UHGV virus genome: UHGV-0121456
Direction: 5' to 3' (one strand)
From: a virus
Length of the DNA stretch: 16,094 nt
Shown: piece after piece, positions 751 to 15,810 of the stretch
Position numbering within the stretch: position 1 is the first letter of the stretch
How the letters are laid out: each line of letters opens with the position of its first letter
Notes under the pieces: generated by a model
What the model was told of the DNA's origin: nothing
The model's input: only the letters and a program-made list of their open reading frames with translations
Databases searched by the model: none
Program-made: the position numbers and the translations under genes

Positions 751-1497
751 ATGCGACATAATTTTTCTAAAGACACTATAAAAAAATTAGCAGAGCGGGC
801 AGCATTCATTTGTTCAAACCCTTCATGCCCTAGATTGACCATTGGCCCATCAATTGATGGCAATAAATCAATCAAGACAGGAGTTGCTGCTCACATATGT
901 GCAGCATCTCCTGATGGCCCACGCTATGACATGTCACAATCAGAAACAGAAAGGAAGTCAATTAACAATGGCATATGGCTGTGTGCTACTTGTTCTGTAT
1001 TAATAGATAAGAATCAGGGGCTAGACTATCCGGCACCTGTATTAAGAAAATGGAAAAAAGATCATGAAAGCCTTATAAGCTCCTGTCTTGAAGGTTCGAT
1101 TAATATTACCTTCGATGCTTTGAAATATATTCAACAGCATGATGAAAGAAATCTGGCAAAAAAGATTATAAATGAATTGGATGATAAAGGGGCTTTGTTC
1201 GTAGAATATCATCTTGAAAACCCCTGTTTTGTTGCCGAATCACTCAAAGAGTTAAGAACATGTTTGACCTCTTTGCTTTCTCAAATCCCAGATGAATCAC
1301 CTCTATTTATCGTTTGCAAGTCAATTCGAGAAGCATGCCGTTATTATATGAACAACACTTCTAAAGACGCAGGGATTAAAGAGTTAGAATTTTCGTTGGG
1401 AGCTGTCAGAAAAATCGTAGGTATCAACGTTAAAAGAATATCAGAAACCTACGGGGTTAAACCTAGCCCACAATTATCTACCATAATGCCAGATTAA
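751..1497 (+). CDS. Reverse-oriented moron: 248 aa protein with an N-terminal HNH-like (beta-beta-alpha-metal/zinc-ribbon) motif and an uncharacterised C-terminal domain
   Basis: ATG at 751. Motif C-x4-C ... AAHICAASPDGPRY ... NNGIWLCATCS (CxxC followed by Ser where His is expected). Lower GC than the flanks. Opposite strand to Q and the lysis genes. Followed by its own hairpin. Confidence 0.6.
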   Translation: MRHNFSKDTIKKLAERAAFICSNPSCPRLTIGPSIDGNKSIKTGVAAHICAASPDGPRYDMSQSETERKSINNGIWLCATCSVLIDKNQGLDYPAPVLRKWKKDHESLISSCLEGSINITFDALKYIQQHDERNLAKKIINELDDKGALFVEYHLENPCFVAESLKELRTCLTSLLSQIPDESPLFIVCKSIREACRYYMNNTSKDAGIKELEFSLGAVRKIVGINVKRISETYGVKPSPQLSTIMPD

Positions 1498-1506
1498 ATC
1501 TGTTAC

Positions 1507-1550
1507 GCAGCAACAAAGTTAAACTCTATGTTGCTGCCTTAATTTTATTA
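1507..1550 (+). terminator. Candidate intrinsic terminator for the moron transcript
   Basis: Perfect 9 bp stem gcagcaaca/tgttgctgc (1507-1515/1529-1537) with a 13 nt loop, followed by cttaattttatta. It starts 10 bp after the moron stop. Confidence 0.45.
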
Positions 1551-1910
1551 CTCCATTTCTAAACGAATATCCAGCATCGAGAGACAACCATCTATAAACC
1601 CTTCAGCCAACTGTATCTCTATACGTATCAATTTCTCATCTTTTTTGTATGCTTTTGCTATCTTCCTTTTCGAGATGCCATACAGGTAATGAGCCACAAT
1701 CAGAGAGTGCTCATACGGTTTTCTCTTCTTAAGAAGAGCAAGACAACCTTCAATAATTAATGCATCACTATCTGAACAAGCCTGACGTGTTTTGCTTGTA
1801 TAGGGAAGAAGCCCTTTAAACCCAGCAGCTATAGGAGAATAGTCTACTCCAGAACTATCACTCGCCGCCCATGCTCCCCAACGCTCCAGAACCATCTGAA
1901 TATCACGCAT
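1548..1910 (-). CDS. Q: Late-gene antiterminator Q (Q21/QuuD-like family)
   Basis: Translation MRDIQMVLERWGAWAASDSSGVDYSPIAAGFKGLL... matches my recollection of E. coli QuuD. Probable start is ATG at 1910..1908 with GGAG 7 nt upstream; the ORF-track start at 1913 is a TTG. It sits immediately upstream of the lysis region. Confidence 0.8.
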   Translation of the reverse strand: MRDIQMVLERWGAWAASDSSGVDYSPIAAGFKGLLPYTSKTRQACSDSDALIIEGCLALLKKRKPYEHSLIVAHYLYGISKRKIAKAYKKDEKLIRIEIQLAEGFIDGCLSMLDIRLEME

Positions 1911-1927
1911 CAACTTTCTCCACCAAA

Positions 1928-6717: not shown

Positions 6718-6896
6718 AGGACTGTCTCCTTCTGCCGGTTGAAATCACCCACAGCCCACTCAGCAAAGCTGTGGGTTACAATTTCCCTGTCACCTGGTAC
6801 ATTCACTGCATAGCAATACTCCACCTTCGCTTTTCCACCCGGTACAGGAAGCGCAATCAGTTGCGAGCGACGGTAGTGTGTTGTTAAACTGTTCAT
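6558..6896 (-). CDS. Hypothetical protein, frame-conflicted; the N-terminal half looks genuine, the C-terminal half looks like out-of-frame translation
   Basis: ATG at 6896..6894 is coupled (ATGA) to the upstream CII-like gene. The second half ([55 protein letters not shown]) is Ser-rich and low in complexity. Confidence 0.4.
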
Positions 6897-7456
6897 GCGT
6901 TAGTTTCTCCACAGTCACGACACGCCACGGCGCCCGGAGCTGCACACTCGCGGGCGTCACTACTTTCTGAAACGCAAAAGATTTTGTAGACCAGTGCTGC
7001 ATGCTCCTGCAGCTTCGAAATTGAGAGATACAGCTCGTCGTTAATTGCTGTCTTCTCATGCGGTTCCACTACACCGTCTTCGATTGCTGAACGAATCTGT
7101 TTTGAATAACTGCCGATCTGTTCAATGACTTCCAGCAGACGCTGGTTAATATCGGCGTTGTCCACATCCTCGACGTCAGGAAGAGACACAAAGACGCCAT
7201 TTGCAGACTGCGCCACAGCGTCAGCAATGAAGTGAGTTCCACCAGCACGTTGCAAAATCATTGCCCATCCCAGCGGGAAAATCTGATCGCCATCGGCACG
7301 AAGGCGGTTAAATAATGCGTTCTCTGTTACATCCAGCCAGTCAGCAGCTTCAGCGTAACCCCCCGGCAACGCTGCGATAGTTTTTCTGACAGCTTTCACG
7401 TACCACTCAGGCTGTTTTTCTATTTTCCAGTGATGCTTACCCACGGTTAGCCTCAT
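6893..7456 (-). CDS. CII-like or YdaT-like early regulatory protein (tentative)
   Basis: 187 aa immediately downstream of cro on the same strand, the position lambda cII occupies. Family assignment is tentative and from memory. Start is ATG at 7456, or GTG at 7444 with an AGG Shine-Dalgarno. Confidence 0.45.
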
Positions 7457-7487: not shown

Positions 7488-7688
7488 CTAATCTTTCGGA
7501 TAGATATCCGGTCTTAAGTCAGATTTCGTAATTGCACCTGACGTGCATTGCTCAAGTTTTTTAGCCAGCACAAAACTGGCTTTTTTATAGCCATTGAAAA
7601 CCAGCCGTAAGTAGCCAGGTGTTGAGCCAACTTTTCCGGCCAACTCGCCCTGCTGTTCTTTGGTTAAAGAGTCCCAATACGCTTTCAT
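7488..7688 (-). CDS. cro: Cro-like helix-turn-helix repressor
   Basis: 66 aa MKAYWDSLTKEQQGELAGKVGSTPGYLRLVFNGYKKASFVLAKKLEQCTSGAITKSDLRPDIYPKD. ATG at 7688..7686 with GGAGG 10 nt upstream. Divergent from cI. The longer track ORF 7488..7991 would run through the operator region. Confidence 0.75.
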   Translation of the reverse strand: MKAYWDSLTKEQQGELAGKVGSTPGYLRLVFNGYKKASFVLAKKLEQCTSGAITKSDLRPDIYPKD

Positions 7689-7778
7689 ACAATATGTACC
7701 TCCGGTGTACATATTACATGATTGAAATGAACCTTCAAGATACTTGTACCTTAACGGTACAAGGGTTTTAATTTCGTT
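7689..7778. promoter_or_regulatory. OR-like immunity region: two palindromic operators (7692-7714 ATATGTAC-N7-GTACATAT; 7743-7763 CTTGTACC-N5-GGTACAAG) overlapping divergent promoters
   Basis: Perfect 8 bp inverted repeats sharing TGTAC-N7-GTACA. Candidate pR on the minus strand: -35 TTGAAG (7738..7733), 16 nt spacer, -10 TAATAT (7716..7711). Candidate pRM on the plus strand: -10 TTTAAT (7767-7772) about 7 nt before the cI ATG, which would make cI mRNA leaderless. Confidence 0.55.
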
Positions 7779-8453
7779 ATGAAAACAATCCATGACATCC
7801 GGCGGTCTAACGCCAGAAAACTGAGAGATGGTGTTGGCGGGAATTCTTCCTTTGCCACTATGATTGATCGCGAGCCAACCCAGACCAGCAGGTTTATGGG
7901 AGATGGTGCTACTAAAAATATCGGTGACAGCATGGCACGACACATCGAAAAATGTTTCGACCTGCCTGTCGGATGGCTCGATCAAGAACACCAGACAACG
8001 AACATCACAAAAAAACCTGATGTTTCAATCACTAATAAACAAATCACATTAGTCCCTGTCATATCATGGGTACAGGCCGGAGCATGGAAAGAAGTTGGAT
8101 ATTCTGAGGTTGATTTGAGCACAGCAGAAACGTATCCCTGCCCTGTACCCTGTGGGGAAATGACTTATATCTTGCGGGTGATAGGTGATTCAATGATTGA
8201 TGAGTACCGCCCGGGAGACATGATTTTTGTCGATCCTGAAGTACCTGCCTGCCACGGTGACGACGTTATTGCATTGATGCACGATACAGGCGAAACCACC
8301 TTCAAAAGGTTGATAGAAGATGGGACACAGCGTTATCTCAAAGCGTTAAACCCAAACTGGCCTGAGCCTTACATTAAGATCAACGGTAATTGCTCTATAA
8401 TTGGTACAGTGATTTTCTCAGGAAAACCAAGAAGATACAAAATCAAAGCCTAA
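7779..8453 (+). CDS. cI: CI-type prophage repressor (helix-turn-helix plus S24 LexA-like autopeptidase domain)
   Basis: 224 aa. C-terminal GDSMIDEYRPGDMIFVD ... TFKRL holds the Ser/Lys dyad. Divergent from cro across the operator region. No strong Shine-Dalgarno. Confidence 0.85.
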   Translation: MKTIHDIRRSNARKLRDGVGGNSSFATMIDREPTQTSRFMGDGATKNIGDSMARHIEKCFDLPVGWLDQEHQTTNITKKPDVSITNKQITLVPVISWVQAGAWKEVGYSEVDLSTAETYPCPVPCGEMTYILRVIGDSMIDEYRPGDMIFVDPEVPACHGDDVIALMHDTGETTFKRLIEDGTQRYLKALNPNWPEPYIKINGNCSIIGTVIFSGKPRRYKIKA

Positions 8454-8465
8454 TCAATGTTTATG

Positions 8466-8488
8466 AACCTGCTTCGGCAGGTTTTTTT
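8466..8488 (+). terminator. Intrinsic terminator downstream of cI
   Basis: 7 bp stem aacctgc/gcaggtt (8466-8472/8477-8483) with loop ttcg, followed by a run of seven T ending at 8488. It lies 13 bp after the cI stop. Confidence 0.75.
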
Positions 8489-8492
8489 ATAC

Positions 8493-8536
8493 TTGACAAT
8501 GTACCTTTGAGATACATAATGTACCCAAGCGAAACA
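8493..8536 (+). promoter_or_regulatory. pL-like promoter with overlapping OL-like operator half-sites
   Basis: TTGACA (8493-8498), 16 nt spacer, CATAAT (8515-8520). TGTAC at 8500-8504 with ATACA at 8512-8516 (N7 spacing as in the OR operators), and a second TGTAC at 8520-8524. Confidence 0.5.
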
Positions 8537-8667
8537 ACGAACAGGCAGGACGCCCACGAAGTAGCCGCCTGAGGCATATGAAGTCCTAGATGATTCGTTA
8601 GCAACAAAAAAGCGCCCTAGTGCACGCTTCGCTCTTTAACAATCTGGATATCCACAACAGTAGCAAT

Positions 8668-9159
8668 CTACAGATTGCCGTTAAGTTTTCTGGACAACTC
8701 CTCAATGGATGGAGGCGATACATAATCTGGATTTTTATTCATCAGAAACTTATTTTCACAGTGGAGGCACCTGCTTTTATGAAAAAGCTCATCTTCGCTA
8801 ACCGGGAATGGTTGAAGTATCGATACTATCTTTTGTCCAAAACATTTTGGGCAAAGATGCATGGTTATGCTGCCACCGTTCACGATTACCTCCTTCGAGT
8901 ATACAAAAGTACCCGACTCAAGTTGGTTAAGGATATAGCCTTCCGTCTGAGCCTCAAAGTTTTCGAATTCTGCAATTTTAGCTTTGAGAGAAGCATTTAT
9001 TTCTTGATAAGAGCCCACCAGTTCAACGAGAGACACGCATTCGCGCTGAATAGACGCAAGCTTTGAGTTCAGCTCACCAATAGCCGCATTTACTTCAGCT
9101 TGAGTTTTTGCCTCGTTCATTAGTTTTGCAATCTGGGCTGTTTCACGAATAGCCGTCAT
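8668..9159 (-). CDS. Hypothetical coiled-coil protein with a C-terminal Cys4 zinc-ribbon-like motif (CPKC ... CLHC); candidate accessory gene next to cI
   Basis: About 163 aa from ATG at 9159..9157 (MTAIRETAQIAKLMNEAKTQAEVNAAIGELNSKLASIQ...); GTG at 9183 is an alternative start. The upstream part of the 259 aa track ORF looks like junk. AT-rich island on the strand opposite to cI. Confidence 0.55.
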   Translation of the reverse strand: MTAIRETAQIAKLMNEAKTQAEVNAAIGELNSKLASIQRECVSLVELVGSYQEINASLKAKIAEFENFEAQTEGYILNQLESGTFVYSKEVIVNGGSITMHLCPKCFGQKIVSILQPFPVSEDELFHKSRCLHCENKFLMNKNPDYVSPPSIEELSRKLNGNL

Positions 9160-9197
9160 TGCTGCCGTTAATTCAGCGATCACATTGAATACTCTTA

Positions 9198-9243
9198 TTG
9201 TTGTTGGGGATATCCAGATTAACCGAATCCTTGTTGTTGGGGA
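9198..9243. repeat. Two exact 13 bp direct repeats TTGTTGTTGGGGA (9198-9210 and 9231-9243) upstream of the zinc-ribbon gene
   Basis: Exact copies 33 bp apart, 40-85 bp upstream of the start codon at 9159 on the minus strand. Candidate regulator-binding sites. Confidence 0.5.
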
Positions 9244-9469
9244 ATAACCAGGTCCACCTCGCCTGATGTGGCTAAAAGCAGGCACATAACAGCTAAGTAT
9301 TTTCAACCAGAGAGAATCCTTAGCGTTGTGGTGAATGCGGCTCAGCGCACGCGGGTTAAGGTTGAGGCTGACAGTCGACCTTCTGTGGATACCCACCCGC
9401 CTGGTGTGCAACCTTCGCCAGGCACCGGGAGGCACCCGGCACCACAACTTTATGCTGTGTGTAGTCCTG

Positions 9470-9515
9470 GCGGTACCAGTTTGTACCCTTGCTTCCAGCT
9501 GGTACCGCTCTTTTT
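9470..9515 (+). terminator. Strong intrinsic terminator (tL-like) in the structured intergenic region
   Basis: 10 bp perfect stem gcggtaccag/ctggtaccgc (9470-9479/9499-9508) with a 19 nt loop, followed by tcTTTTTac. Confidence 0.55.
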
Positions 9516-9652
9516 ACAAAACAGAGAAGAGCATCACCGGACGACGGGCTCATAACCCAATCCATCCGGGCGGCTGCCACCGCAGGTGTTCTTCTCTGTT
9601 TTGTGGAGAAACCAACCGACCTTGCAGGGTCGATATGATGAGGAACAGCAAA

Positions 9653-10015
9653 ATGGCTAGCGAACGCAGTACTGATGTGCAGGCATTTATCGGGGAGCTG
9701 GACGGCGGCGTATTTGAAACCAAAATCGGCGCAGTTCTCAGTGAAGTCGCTTCCGGTGTGATGAACACGAAAACCAAAGGGAAGGTCTCACTCAACCTGG
9801 AAATCGAACCATTTGATGAGAACCGTGTGAAAATCAAACACAAACTCTCATATATTCGCCCGACTAACCGCGGGAAAATTTCCGAAGAAGACACCACCGA
9901 AACGCCGATGTATGTCAATCGCGGTGGTCGCCTGACTATTCTGCAGGAAGACCAGGGACAATTACTGACTCTTGCCGGTGAACCTGACGGAAAACTCCGC
10001 GCAGCAGGTCATTAA
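9653..10015 (+). CDS. yfdP: YfdP-like prophage protein (120 aa)
   Basis: ATG at 9653 with GAGGAA 7 nt upstream. The N-terminal extension in the track (from 9335) is Arg/Cys-rich junk. Symbol assigned from remembered size and synteny with the CPS-53/KplE1 yfdPQRST block, not from sequence recall. Confidence 0.55.
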   Translation: MASERSTDVQAFIGELDGGVFETKIGAVLSEVASGVMNTKTKGKVSLNLEIEPFDENRVKIKHKLSYIRPTNRGKISEEDTTETPMYVNRGGRLTILQEDQGQLLTLAGEPDGKLRAAGH

Positions 10016-10080: not shown

Positions 10081-10905
10081 ATGTCTCAGAACTTAGACGC
10101 AACCGCAATTAATCAAATCCATGCCCTTATTTCTGCTCAGGGTGTTAATGAAATTATCAGTAAGATTGGTGCCGATGCTGTGGCATTGCCTGAGAATTTC
10201 CGCATTCATGATCTGGAAAAATTTAATTTAAATCGCTTCCGTTTCCGTGGCGCGCTTTCCACTGCCAGCATCGATGACTTTACCCGTTATTCTAAAGATC
10301 TTGCAGATGAAGGCACCCGCTGCTTTATCGATGCCGATAATATGCGAGCCGTCAGTGTGCTTAACCTGGGCACTATTGATGAACCTGGTCATGCAGATAA
10401 CACTGCCACTCTCAAACTGAAAAAGACAGCCCCGTTCTCTGCTCTGTTGTCTGTTAATGGCGAGCGTAACTCCCAGAAGTCACTGGCAGAATGGATTGAA
10501 GACTGGGCCGACTACCTTGTGGGCTTTGATGCTAATGGTGACGCCATTCAGGCAACAAAAGCAGCTGCGGCAGTCCGTAAAATCACAATTGAAGCAAACC
10601 AGACCGCTGATTTTGAAGACAATGACTTCAGCGGCAAACGCTCTCTGATGGAGTCTGTCGAAGCGAAGACCAAAGACATTATGCCAGTGGCATTTGAATT
10701 TAAATGCGTTCCGTTTGAAGGTCTGAAAGAACGTCCGTTTAAATTACGCCTCAGCATTATCACTGGCGATCGTCCTGTACTGGTTCTGCGCATTATTCAG
10801 CTGGAAGCGGTGCAGGAAGAAATGGCTAACGAATTTCGTGATCTGCTTGTTGAGAAATTCAAAGACAGCAAAGTAGAAACCTTTATTGGTACTTTCACCG
10901 CCTGA
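10081..10905 (+). CDS. yfdQ: YfdQ-like DUF2303-family protein (274 aa)
   Basis: ATG at 10081 with GAGGA upstream. Size and neighbours (120 aa, 274 aa, 178 aa HD protein, 120 aa) match my recollection of the K-12 CPS-53 yfdP-yfdS block. Confidence 0.7.
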
Positions 10906-12988: not shown

Positions 12989-14215
12989 ATGATTGATAAT
13001 GAAGTTAAAATTTTTGCAAAAGAAAAAGAAAAAATGCTGTGCAACAAACTTTCTTTTTACAGGGAGCATGCTCAATCGAGTGAAGATACAAGAAAAAGAA
13101 ACGAATTTGAACGAGACTATGCGCGTATTCTTTATTCCTCTTCGTTCCGCCGGTTACAGGGGAAAATGCAGCTCTTTGAAGTCGATCCTCAAAAATTTAA
13201 CCGTAATAGACTGACTCATAGCCTAGAAGTTGCCCAGATAGCCCGAAGCATCGCATCCGAACTAGAACTTGAACATCCTGTTGTAGCAGAACTGGCTGCA
13301 CTTGCTCACGATATTGGCAACCCTCCGTTTGGTCATTCCGGTGAAAAAAAGCTAAACGATATTGCTAATGATTTCGGCGGCTACGAAGGCAATGCACAGG
13401 CACTTAGAATACTCAGAAGTCTCGAGATAAAGCATCCAAATTGCCCCGGTCTCAACCTTACCCACCGTGCCATTCTCTCCGTCGTTAAATATCCTTATAA
13501 AAAGGAAAACGGCAGAAAAAAATATCTTTATAATGATGACTATAAATACTACACAGAATTGGTAAATAGATATGAATTAGATTTGCAGACTGGCGAGAAG
13601 ACCATTGATGCACAGATAATGGATCTGTCAGACGAAATTGCATATGCCGCGCATGACCTTGAAGATGCACTAAGCCGTAGCATGGTCAGTATTGAAGATA
13701 TTTTTTATGAGTTTGGGATATCCAAGTACAAAGACTCAATTGATTTATTAAATACAATCATTGAAAAATCTAAATATACAGCTTCGAGAGCATCAAGACT
13801 CAATTCATCTGAAGAGTTCGCCATAATATTCAGAAAGGAATTGACATCCAATATTGTTAATGCGCTTGTTAATGATATTACTGTTATTCAAAGTGAAAAT
13901 GGATTCAAGCAACTTGGATTTAGCACTACAAAAAATCTGTCTGCAGGCCTTAAAGATATCGTATTTAAAGTCATCATGCGAAAAAGAGATATTAAAAGTT
14001 ATGAGCACAAAGGAAACATTATCATCGAAGATTTATTTAATTTTTATAATTATAGAGATAACATAGAATTCATATCCCCTCAACTGTATAGAACGCTCCC
14101 AAATAAAATAGAGCCTATTTATCAAGAACTTAAAAAACGTGCAATTGTCGACTACATCTCTGGAATGATGGATACATTTGCCATCCGCGAGTGGGAAACG
14201 CATCACAAAAAATAA
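12989..14215 (+). CDS. dGTPase-family HD-domain deoxynucleoside triphosphate triphosphohydrolase (Dgt-like); candidate nucleotide-depletion defence gene
   Basis: 408 aa. Motifs RLTHSLEVAQIARSIA, HDIGNPPFGHSGE, YEGNAQALRIL, DLSDEIAYAAHDLEDAL, VDYISGMMDTFAIREW match E. coli Dgt signatures. ATG at 12989 with GAGAGG Shine-Dalgarno. Sits in a strongly AT-rich island between the xis-like gene and the integrase. Confidence 0.85.
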   Translation: MIDNEVKIFAKEKEKMLCNKLSFYREHAQSSEDTRKRNEFERDYARILYSSSFRRLQGKMQLFEVDPQKFNRNRLTHSLEVAQIARSIASELELEHPVVAELAALAHDIGNPPFGHSGEKKLNDIANDFGGYEGNAQALRILRSLEIKHPNCPGLNLTHRAILSVVKYPYKKENGRKKYLYNDDYKYYTELVNRYELDLQTGEKTIDAQIMDLSDEIAYAAHDLEDALSRSMVSIEDIFYEFGISKYKDSIDLLNTIIEKSKYTASRASRLNSSEEFAIIFRKELTSNIVNALVNDITVIQSENGFKQLGFSTTKNLSAGLKDIVFKVIMRKRDIKSYEHKGNIIIEDLFNFYNYRDNIEFISPQLYRTLPNKIEPIYQELKKRAIVDYISGMMDTFAIREWETHHKK

Positions 14216-14586: not shown

Positions 14587-15810
14587 TCAACTGGAATCTG
14601 AACTAGGACAAGTAACGAGCGATTCAACCCTCTCCCACCATACCTGGTAGGCTTTACGCTGTTCTTCTAGATAATCGCTCTTGTCATAAACCTGCCATAC
14701 CCCTGGCAGCTTATGACCAAGCATAATTTCTGCAATATGAGGCGCAGTAAGATCAGAAAAGTTTGTTCGTGCTGTTCGCCTCAAATCATGAAGAGACCAA
14801 TGAGGGAATTGATACCCCAAACGTCGCCATGCGAACTGCATTAAATTGTAAGGCAGCGACTGCAATGATGTCCGACCAACTGGCTCCCTGCTTCCTTCCT
14901 TAGTAAAAAGCATATCGGAACCGTTGTTCATAGAGATAACGTATTTTATAAGCTCTTCAACCGGTTCAATAATGGGCCGCTTTAGTGGTTCGCCTGTTAT
15001 CTCCCCTGTCTTATGTCGTTCTGGCGGTACAGTCCATACCTTATTAATGAAATCAAAATCGTCCACCCTGGCGGTAATTAGCTCTGAACTACGGCAGCCA
15101 AAATGCAGCAATAGTTTAATGAAGGCCCGGTATTTAGGAACCATTCGAGAACCATCGATCGCAGCATAAAGGATTTTAATTTCATCATGTGTCAGAAACC
15201 GTTTCTTCTGACCTTTACGGATATCCATATCTTTACCCGTGATATCCGACAGCGGGCGAGTTTCAATGAGCTTTCTCTTATACGCCCAGACATGGGCCTG
15301 CTTTGCGTTAATTAGTAATCGGTCTGCTATTGCTGGAGCCTTAGTGCTAAGAGGCTCCAGGACTTCTAACCAATCATGCAATGTAGCTGCATCGTGAGGG
15401 ATATTCCCGATTTTAGAGAACAGGTGCAACTCAAACGAGCGGAGTATCTGTTCAGAACCCTTTTTATTTTTTACACAATATGCTTCATACCAGGCACGGA
15501 TCACAGACTCTACCGTCATGGCTTCAGTAGCTTTTCGTTTTTCAGCCTGCTTGACCAATCGTGGATTACGGTTTGACTCGAGTTCACCACGGAGACGGAT
15601 AACTTCTTCTCTGGCCTCTTTTAATCCAGTTGCCGGGTAAGTTCCGATATCAAGACGCTCACCTTTCCCTGCCCATTGATAACGATATTGGAACACTACG
15701 CGACCTTTCGGTGATACTCTGACAGACAGACCATCACGATCGGATTTAACCAAAACCTTATCACGTTCCTTTCCAACGACTGAACGCAACCACGCATCAG
15801 ACAGCGCCAT
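14587..15810 (-). CDS. int: Tyrosine-type site-specific integrase (P4-like, with N-terminal arm-binding DUF4102-like domain)
   Basis: 407 aa. N-terminus MALSDAWLRSVVGKERDKVLVKSDRDGLSVRVSPKG...YRYQWAGKGERLDIGTYP. C-terminal catalytic signatures HDLRRTART and a terminal Tyr region. AGGTGA Shine-Dalgarno before ATG at 15810. Confidence 0.9.
   Translation of the reverse strand: MALSDAWLRSVVGKERDKVLVKSDRDGLSVRVSPKGRVVFQYRYQWAGKGERLDIGTYPATGLKEAREEVIRLRGELESNRNPRLVKQAEKRKATEAMTVESVIRAWYEAYCVKNKKGSEQILRSFELHLFSKIGNIPHDAATLHDWLEVLEPLSTKAPAIADRLLINAKQAHVWAYKRKLIETRPLSDITGKDMDIRKGQKKRFLTHDEIKILYAAIDGSRMVPKYRAFIKLLLHFGCRSSELITARVDDFDFINKVWTVPPERHKTGEITGEPLKRPIIEPVEELIKYVISMNNGSDMLFTKEGSREPVGRTSLQSLPYNLMQFAWRRLGYQFPHWSLHDLRRTARTNFSDLTAPHIAEIMLGHKLPGVWQVYDKSDYLEEQRKAYQVWWERVESLVTCPSSDSS

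Follow-up and report, generated by a model that had tools for sequence, protein, structure and literature searches.

Rip1 ('ring interacting pore 1') was described in 2026 by Patel et al. (Nature 651:1060) and is summarised in a 2026 review (PMC13434031), from which its behaviour is taken here, with support from a meeting report that also covers Rip1 (PMC12908700) and from a paper that names it as a sensor of the small terminase (PMC13601566). In Pseudomonas, the prophage gene lies between those for the small and large terminase, and its product stops superinfecting phages but is not toxic alone; escapers carry mutations in the portal (Pseudomonas phages) or in the small terminase (Escherichia coli phages). 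By cryo-electron microscopy, the assembly has 12 Rip1 subunits placed around a small-terminase 11-mer ring and is traversed by a pore; Rip1 complexes release dye from liposomes, and homologues are widespread in proteobacterial prophages (PMC13434031). We analyzed a rip1-like gene on the minus strand, at positions 8668-9183, of a 16,094-nucleotide stretch of the virus genome UHGV-0121456, referred to below as the window. The gene content of the window is that of a lambdoid prophage early region (SfV/SfIV/CPS-53 type), and we consider it probable that this open reading frame (ORF) encodes a single-protein abortive-infection defence of the Rip1 family that serves the prophage by the mechanism proposed below.

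A second described system concerns the region in front of this gene. According to work attributed to Ranade and Poteete in 1993, an infecting P22 reportedly makes the antisense RNA sas and so escapes its own SieB. The P22 sas sequence is printed in Table 2 of a 2026 paper (PMC13397905), where P22 is seen to make sas during infection, with reads in infected cells only. The RNA pairs with sieB mRNA and represses translation of SieB (PMC12197685, PMC7067206).

The original prediction, drawn from the sequence alone, had proposed a superinfection-exclusion-type gene whose product has a helical N-terminal half and a zinc-ribbon-like C-terminal CPKC...CLHC pair, had been unable to assign it to a family, and had suggested remote-homology searches and structure prediction. 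Those approaches now place the protein in the Rip1 family. A phmmer search of the PDB gave a sole match, chain 9oox_L, 'ring interacting pore 1' (E=5.3e-7), and a profile built from 25 homologues matched 9oox at E=3.6e-17, with profile positions 6-152 aligned to chain residues 16-160 (145/164). According to the entry description in Foldseek, 9oox is the Rip1 of phage HK446 bound to the T6 small terminase. The AlphaFold2 model of the rip1-like protein (mean predicted local distance difference test score, 87.8) has helices at residues 2-24 and 28-79 followed by a beta-rich C-terminal domain of six strands that bears both CxxC pairs, much as had been predicted. When this model was compared with the PDB using Foldseek, the only significant matches were 9oox_L and 9oox_M (probability 1.00; template-modelling scores of 0.41-0.55 by query and 0.53-0.71 by target), and the next match had E=0.07.

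Searches by tblastn connected the protein to those of JBD30, DMS3 and MP38 (E=2e-11 to 1e-10), D3112 orf25 (E=5e-9), HK620 HkaP (E=3e-13) and HK446 gp37 (E=4e-4). Among the PHROGs it belongs to phrog_1244 ('unknown function'; E=2.4e-58), as do HK446 Rip1 (2.2e-53), HK620 HkaP (7.9e-51) and JBD30 gp30 (2.7e-61). An alignment of the rip1-like protein with these three and four others showed C111, C114, C139, C142, V94-Y95 and I122-L123 to be invariant, and the VY pair and an ILQ motif are common to the rip1-like, HK446, HK620 and JBD30 proteins. The N-terminus is amphipathic, with a hydrophobic moment of 0.40-0.44 over residues 7-30, and no run of 10 or more apolar or small residues that might form a transmembrane stretch was found in the protein; both of these measures are crude. 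The family itself is large, since a Rip1-type profile search returned 2346 clusters at 50% identity with E<=1e-3, nearly all of 145-175 amino acids. By homology, then, the rip1-like gene is a divergent member of the Rip1 family and, as far as can be read from sequence, a full-length homologue of a prophage abortive-infection pore, in line with the exclusion role first proposed.

The same comparisons bear on a different view of the protein, which we regard as unlikely, namely that the Rip1 scaffold is merely shared and that exclusion takes a non-pore route, the zinc ribbon binding nucleic acid and the coiled coil serving as a regulator or an inhibitor of DNA packaging. In its favor, the protein is only 24-30% identical to the Rip1 proteins that have been characterised, the C-terminus weakly matches zinc-ribbon models (RNA polymerase subunit P and ECs_2282 CxxC, E 0.02-0.13), and the N-terminal hydrophobic moment is moderate, not extreme. 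However, the homology runs the full length of the protein with the N-terminal helices included, the PHROG and the size are those of Rip1, 9oox is the one significant structural match in the PDB, and the experimentally studied members keep the invariant residues of the alignment, all of which argues against this view.

An ORF was listed at 8668-9447 on the minus strand, and its translation includes the 163-amino-acid product with CPKC and CLHC that had been predicted from an ATG at 9159. The minus-strand ORF is real, but its start is better placed at the GTG at 9183, giving a protein of 171 amino acids that ends at a TAG stop (8670-8668), because the eight codons 5' of ATG 9159 (MIAELTAA) are conserved as protein among homologues. 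Of the 25 aligned homologues, 24 carry this stretch, the Ile2 codon varies synonymously among them (ATC, ATA or ATT), and homologues in the databases are mostly of 170-175 amino acids. A Shine-Dalgarno-like AAGAG read from the sequence (9192-9196, minus strand) lies 8 nt 5' of the GTG, and its position is kept as (A/G)AGAG or ATGAG in the leader alignment. The gene had also been called AT-rich; its GC content is indeed slightly low (0.424), although the difference is marginal against 0.468 for the window and 0.449 for cI. The in-frame Met9 (minus-strand ATG, 9159-9157, codon 9) is nearly invariant within the subfamily, has no clear Shine-Dalgarno sequence, and aligns with no Met in the HK446 or JBD30 Rip1 proteins. 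Since an internal start in sieB of P22 yields the antidote Esc, a second isoform beginning at Met9 is conceivable.

The region upstream of the GTG contains two exact copies of a 13-mer at the coordinates predicted. There are just two occurrences of TTGTTGTTGGGGA in the 16-kb window, both given on the plus strand (9198-9210 and 9231-9243); by comparison, 28 of 2000 Markov-1 random windows (1.4%) held any exact 13-mer repeated within 60 bp. On the gene strand the proximal copy reads TCCCCAACAACAA and makes up the first nucleotides of the predicted mRNA; P22, lambda and HK446 have ACCCCTACAG at this position. The distal copy overlaps the predicted -35 region and the spacer, and on the plus strand it can form the hairpin GUUGUU-GGGG-AAUAAC in a single-sequence fold. 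Both copies change together according to leader type, being CCCCAACAAC twice in the window, CCCCTACAG twice in HK446 and HK620, or CCCCAATCACC with CCCCATTCACC in Cronobacter. In the leader, which has the conserved element GCCTGNCTTTTNNCCACNTCAGGC, the part kept best is GCCTG-N13-CAGGC(N3)GTGG; the two repeats come after it, at positions -60 and -27 relative to the start codon.

Used as a BLAST query, the HK446 rip1 leader matches, at 87% identity, the sequence immediately 5' of sieB in lambda and P22. The RefSeq record of P22 annotates a sieB promoter at 29690-29720 and an RNA start at 29727, and the window leader aligns with this stretch of P22 at the -10, around +1 and at the hairpin element farther upstream; across seven leaders, those of P22 and lambda included, 44 columns are invariant. 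The predicted -10 of the rip1-like gene, TAATCT (9216-9221, minus strand), aligns with P22 TAAACT and HK446 TAAAAT; it is TAATCT in all 15 type-2 leaders and TAAAAT in HK446 and HK620. The predicted -35 region, TATTCCCC (9239-9246, minus strand), is placed by homology only; it aligns with the 5' end of the P22 promoter, TGTACC, and overlaps the distal repeat. By alignment with the mapped P22 sieB RNA start, transcription would begin at about 9211-9209, which gives a predicted 5' untranslated region (UTR) of about 27 nt (9184-9211, minus strand). A CRP site and a pseudoknot were considered by eye for the conserved upstream element and dropped for lack of support.

The cI homologue is followed on the plus strand by a terminator-like hairpin found in a scan (8465-8484; SfV annotates a terminator at the equivalent position) and by a pL-like early promoter, TTGACA-16-CATAAT (8493-8520), with 11 of 12 consensus matches. 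The rip1-like gene lies beyond both and on the opposite strand, as had been stated in the original prediction; it is therefore convergent with pL-type transcription, and transcripts from the pL-like promoter would run antisense through it. The plus strand of the leader also corresponds to P22 sas. The first 126 of 127 nt of P22 sas are the exact reverse complement of the P22 sieB leader, spanning codon 2 of sieB, the 5' UTR, the promoter and both repeats and ending after the conserved hairpin. By homology the corresponding region of the window is 9179-9295 on the plus strand, its ends being estimates, and an alignment of plus-strand 9179-9300 with P22 sas has 86 of 135 columns identical (64%), with near-identity in the 3' hairpin. 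This strand is complementary to the GTG start, the Shine-Dalgarno sequence and the 5' UTR of the rip1-like mRNA, and continues through the promoter. The best-conserved element of the leader, GCCTG-N13-CAGGC (9261-9283, plus strand), matches the 3' hairpin of P22 sas and is the presumed sas terminator; it hardly varies among 17-18 leaders, those of P22, lambda, HK446 and eight enterobacterial genera included. Each 13-mer carries GGGG on the antisense strand; when P22, HK446 and the distal copy of the window were folded as single sequences, this motif fell within a hairpin loop or beside one. Ungapped pair counts for the two strands are equal (157 vs 159), so G-U pairs do not identify the strand; Rfam holds no sas family. 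The suggestion that convergence with pL couples expression of the gene to lysogeny thus gains a sieB-type leader with a sas-homologous opposite strand.

We also weighed whether the 13-mers are instead operators for a DNA-binding regulator of the host or phage, with the upstream element likewise a protein site and neither a part of an antisense RNA, and we think this unlikely. The copies are 33 bp apart, about three helical turns, and sit at the -35 region and +1, a typical repressor geometry; they change together between leader types, a third, inverted copy of the 13-mer lies beyond the stop codon, and no RNA covariation can be demonstrated. Set against this, the stretch is transcribed as sas in P22, with reads only in infected cells, and the 13-mer is unlike the TGTACC-type cI operators of this phage. 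Moreover, the leader is common to unrelated cargo in SfV-like, Rac-like and P22-like backgrounds, and therefore no linked regulator gene travels with it. We favor the view that the 13-mers are parts of the sieB/sas-type leader.

Two 19-nt arms of an inverted repeat bracket the rip1-like ORF: the left arm (8641-8659) is complementary at 18 of 19 positions to the right arm (9202-9220), which overlaps the proximal 13-mer and the -10 region. Beyond the left arm, a terminator-like hairpin with a T-run (8609-8630, minus strand) would end the rip1-like transcript before pL and cI, and this terminator is conserved 3' of the cargo in homologous loci as GTTAAAGAGCGAAGCGT..GGGCGCTTTTT. In degenerate form the inverted repeat (AATCTGGATATCC... 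/ ...GGATATCCAGATT) brackets all four of the cargo length classes checked for the enterobacterial leader type, being found, besides the window, at loci L002, L029, L073, L128, L131, L136 and L138-L150; it is absent from the P22, lambda and HK446 leaders. We considered whether the arms let the 5' and 3' UTRs of the mRNA pair with each other, and do not propose it: with the start predicted from P22 only partial pairing is possible, and in other loci the arms decay independently. In SfIV and phage Kati, homology to the window stops at 8647 and 9200, and the interval holds another minus-strand gene, SfIV_36, while the terminator side and the promoter side, with both repeat copies, are shared.

Such breakpoints might mean that cassette exchange left the direct repeats and the flanking inverted repeat behind as scars, either recombination junctions or target-site duplications of a mobile gene cassette, with no regulatory role. 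The SfIV/Kati breaks do fall in or beside the arms, versions of AATCTGGATATCC...GGATATCCAGATT bracket every cargo length class checked, and the two arms joined would make a perfect palindrome. However, an empty 18-bp palindromic site, AATCTGGATATCCAGATT, which we had considered as an insertion target, gave no match in the viral contig collection or in 153 loci, and that candidate is thus not supported. The leaders of P22, lambda and HK446 keep the direct repeats without the flanking inverted repeat, and the repeat positions coincide with mapped promoter landmarks. We therefore judge the absence of any regulatory role to be very unlikely and retain the repeats as leader elements.

Genes of the rip1 type lie antisense within a lytic operon in all eight contexts compared (the window, HK446, HK620, JBD30, Citrobacter, Cronobacter, Arsenophonus and Salmonella), and in each the rip1-like gene alone opposes the orientation of its neighbours. 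HK446 Rip1 lies just 3' of N, opposite pL, and HK620 hkaP, annotated as a 'putative superinfection exclusion protein', occupies the same slot. The Citrobacter homologue lies between cI and xis/int, that of Cronobacter between the repressor gene and kilR in a Rac-like prophage, that of Arsenophonus between lysis and terminase genes, and that of Salmonella between cro and replication genes; JBD30 gp30 is found between gp29 ('DNA binding protein') and gp31 (large terminase). All homologues examined are prophage-borne single genes. A copy at least 90% identical in DNA sequence is present in 650 of 5,426 complete E. coli genomes, and the gene is labelled 'hypothetical protein' in all eight E. coli records listed.

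The leader accompanies rip1-like genes into differing prophage backgrounds and is conserved across eight enterobacterial genera. A search for the repeat elsewhere, which had been suggested at the outset, located it upstream of the same and of unrelated cargo genes in more than 100 contigs: a 28-mer spanning both repeats is present in at least 120 viral contigs, in 108 of which a cargo ORF could be read, and in every one of the 108 the cargo start codon falls about 28-32 nt after TAATCTGG. The cargo was a phrog_5286 protein in 73 contigs, a Rip1-like protein in 34 (15 distinct sequences) and a secreted phrog_7681 protein in one; five further loci, inspected separately, have an operon beginning with a 25-28-amino-acid peptide. 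With sieB itself, at least five unrelated cargoes (sieB, rip1, phrog_5286, phrog_7681 and the peptide operon) thus follow a sieB-type leader, and each has its start codon about 28-32 nt beyond the -10. The phrog_5286 protein, the commonest cargo in the slot, has 144-151 amino acids and no Pfam, PADLOC or PDB match; examples are SfIV_36 (L002, 1917-2351) and L004 1053-1487, and under such a leader it is a candidate uncharacterised defence gene. The 25-28-amino-acid ORF (MS.DYEERHMPPFKRPEPPPKPDD) is followed by a second ORF a few nt later in viral contigs L059, L068, L070, L074 and L083, and is possibly a leader peptide or part of a small toxin operon.

It is tempting, although on balance doubtful, to go further and regard the sieB-promoter/sas leader as a portable cassette that accepts any cargo, holding a dangerous abortive-infection gene on in the lysogen and turning it off by antisense RNA once a phage with that leader enters lytic growth. 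If this were true, the leader could be used as bait for new prophage defence genes, phrog_5286 would be an uncharacterised defence, and the duplicated GGGG motifs would be a two-site recognition device for the mRNA 5' end.

Membership in the Rip1 family, the homology to the sieB promoter and sas region, and the convergence with pL are read from the sequence; the steps of the mechanism that we propose are carried over from P22 sieB/sas and from the Rip1 proteins of Pseudomonas and HK446. In the lysogen, the gene would be transcribed from a weak sieB-type promoter (-10 TAATCT, 9221-9216; start near 9210), as at the mapped P22 sieB promoter, while pL on the opposite strand would be repressed by cI. 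The protein would accumulate as a harmless soluble species. Late in infection by a heterologous phage, rings of small terminase or portal would be bound by the four-cysteine beta domain, the bound ring would template a Rip1 ring, and the N-terminal amphipathic helices would open an inner-membrane pore, so that the cell would die before progeny could mature. When the resident prophage enters lytic growth, transcription from pL would run antisense through the gene, and a sas-like RNA (plus strand, about 9179-9295) would cover the Shine-Dalgarno sequence and start codon; together, the pL read-through and the sas-like RNA would curb new Rip1 synthesis and spare the prophage. The 13-mers would be parts of this leader, the distal copy over the -35 region and the proximal copy as the mRNA 5' end.

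Several results weigh against this reading. With so low an identity to characterised Rip1 proteins (24-30%), the protein may respond to different triggers and may even differ in forming a pore. Pfam, NCBIfam and PADLOC (2023) have no model for the family and returned only coiled-coil and zinc-ribbon noise, with E above 0.003. The predicted -35 region matches TTGACA poorly, and a scan for the sigma-70 consensus found no minus-strand promoter, which is why the promoter had to be assigned by homology. On the antisense side, the predicted fold of the window sas-like RNA is no more stable than that of shuffled sequence (z=+0.57). With 18 leaders aligned in the antisense orientation, RNAalifold gave -5.5 kcal/mol with one compensatory pair, no convincing consensus structure and no formal covariation, and with 15 hairpin segments it gave nothing useful. 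There is no clear internal sas promoter in P22, the candidate in the window is weak (TTCACG-19-GTTAAT), and candidates elsewhere are weak and inconsistent; a sas-like RNA might come from a promoter of its own or be processed out of the pL transcript.

The surroundings of the gene were read from Pfam and PHROG matches. Before the CII-like gene (6893-7456, minus strand) the order is Q antiterminator, DUF968/HNH, KilA-N, RusA, Dam, PerC-like and an O-like replication protein; then follow cro (7488-7688, minus strand) and the cI homologue (Peptidase_S24; 7779-8453, plus strand). The rip1-like gene sits between cI and a yfdP-like gene (9653-10015, plus strand), which is followed by a yfdQ/DUF2303 gene (10081-10905, plus strand). 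Operator-like repeats AATGTACC lie at the pL-like promoter at 8498 and 8518 (plus strand); such TGTACC/GGTACA repeats flank that promoter (8498-8516 / 8518-8536) and fill the cI-cro intergenic region (7690-7770), and presumably serve as OL and OR in this immunity type. The interval that separates the rip1 module from yfdP holds, in the pL direction, a match (9295-9517, plus strand) to the Rfam family STnc100, a gammaproteobacterial small RNA (sRNA), at 46.5 bits against a gathering score of 47 (E=1.5e-8), the one notable Rfam match in the region. This stretch ends in a terminator-like hairpin with a T-run (9470-9508) and could be an sRNA or a terminator of the pL operon. A 25-nt inverted repeat (9516-9540 / 9580-9604; 84% complementary, 39 nt apart) lies just 5' of the yfdP-like gene.

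The region 8450-9660 is 98% identical to Escherichia phage PhiR49_1, the closest phage relative. The window has an integrase with an Arm-DNA-bind_3 domain at 14587-15810 (minus strand), whereas PhiR49_1 has a plus-strand integrase right after its early-left genes, the last of which is yfdT-like; the two therefore diverge in the region of a dGTPase-like gene. That gene (12989-14215, plus strand; 408 amino acids, 36.8% GC) is flanked by an excisionase-like gene and the integrase, has HD and HD_assoc domains, and matches the PADLOC dGTPase anti-phage model at E=8.7e-105, so the prophage would carry a second defence gene. An AT-rich ORF at 751-1497 (plus strand; 37.6% GC, 248 amino acids) lies on the strand opposite to the Q antiterminator gene (1548-1913, minus strand) and has no Pfam match; its N-terminal 130 amino acids match the PADLOC candidate PDC-M68A (E=7.5e-27) and also HNH-type endonuclease effector models. 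This ORF may be a third defence gene, likewise antisense to its neighbours.

With the gene assigned to Rip1, the E. coli prophage repertoire gains a common defence that can be tested, and the subfamily in the window offers a divergent branch for studying how trigger specificity, for the small terminase or for the portal, is encoded. Lambdoid Rip1 genes, that of HK446 included, lie behind a classical sieB promoter opposite sas, which ties a discovery of 2026 to a circuit of 1993. By analogy with P22, the sieB/sas leader suggests how a prophage could avoid death by its own Rip1. Both the link between Rip1 and this leader and the use of the leader by several unrelated cargo genes may be new.

Compared with the characterised Rip1 proteins (9oox from HK446 and gp30 of JBD30), the window protein is alike in belonging to phrog_1244, in its length (about 165-171 amino acids), in being the product of a single prophage gene, and in having N-terminal amphipathic helices, a C-terminal beta domain and four invariant cysteines. 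Its gene is likewise antisense inside a lytic operon, and that of HK446 also stands behind a sieB/sas-type leader. The window protein differs in that it belongs to a separate enterobacterial subfamily, marked by a GTG start and by the conserved N-terminus MIAELSAAM. The window gene adjoins cI and pL, directly and with no N gene between, unlike HK446 Rip1, which comes after N, and unlike the Pseudomonas genes, which lie between terminase genes. Its leader is of the second type, with CCCCAACAAC repeats and flanking inverted repeats, and not the HK446 type with CCCCTACAG repeats. HK620 HkaP shares the family, the slot opposite pL and the kind of leader, but is only about 30% identical and has a P22-type leader; its annotation as an exclusion protein rests, as far as we found, on position.

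With the SieB/Esc/sas module of P22 and lambda, the locus shares a homologous promoter and leader, a place beyond pL and convergence with pL, and its complementary strand corresponds to sas in covering the ribosome-binding site and start codon. Like SieB (PMC12197685, PMC7067206), its product would, by homology, provide abortive exclusion of other phages by the lysogen. The proteins themselves are unlike: the hhalign probability is 0.15%, SieB belongs to phrog_1301 and the window protein to phrog_1244, and the window protein is without a membrane-spanning segment. No internal antidote of the Esc type is evident, the only candidate start being Met9.

The RexA and RexB proteins of lambda are co-transcribed with cI and encoded between cI and pL on the cI strand. 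Homology of the rip1-like protein points to a likeness with RexAB in action, that is, a lysogen-expressed abortive infection from the immunity region that would end in loss of membrane integrity. It differs in being a single protein with its own predicted promoter, beyond pL on the opposite strand, and shows no homology to RexA or RexB, having no PADLOC or Pfam match. The original prediction had likened the locus to the lambda rexAB slot; it does lie in a slot for exclusion genes, but the lambda analogue is sieB, which is found beyond pL on the opposite strand.

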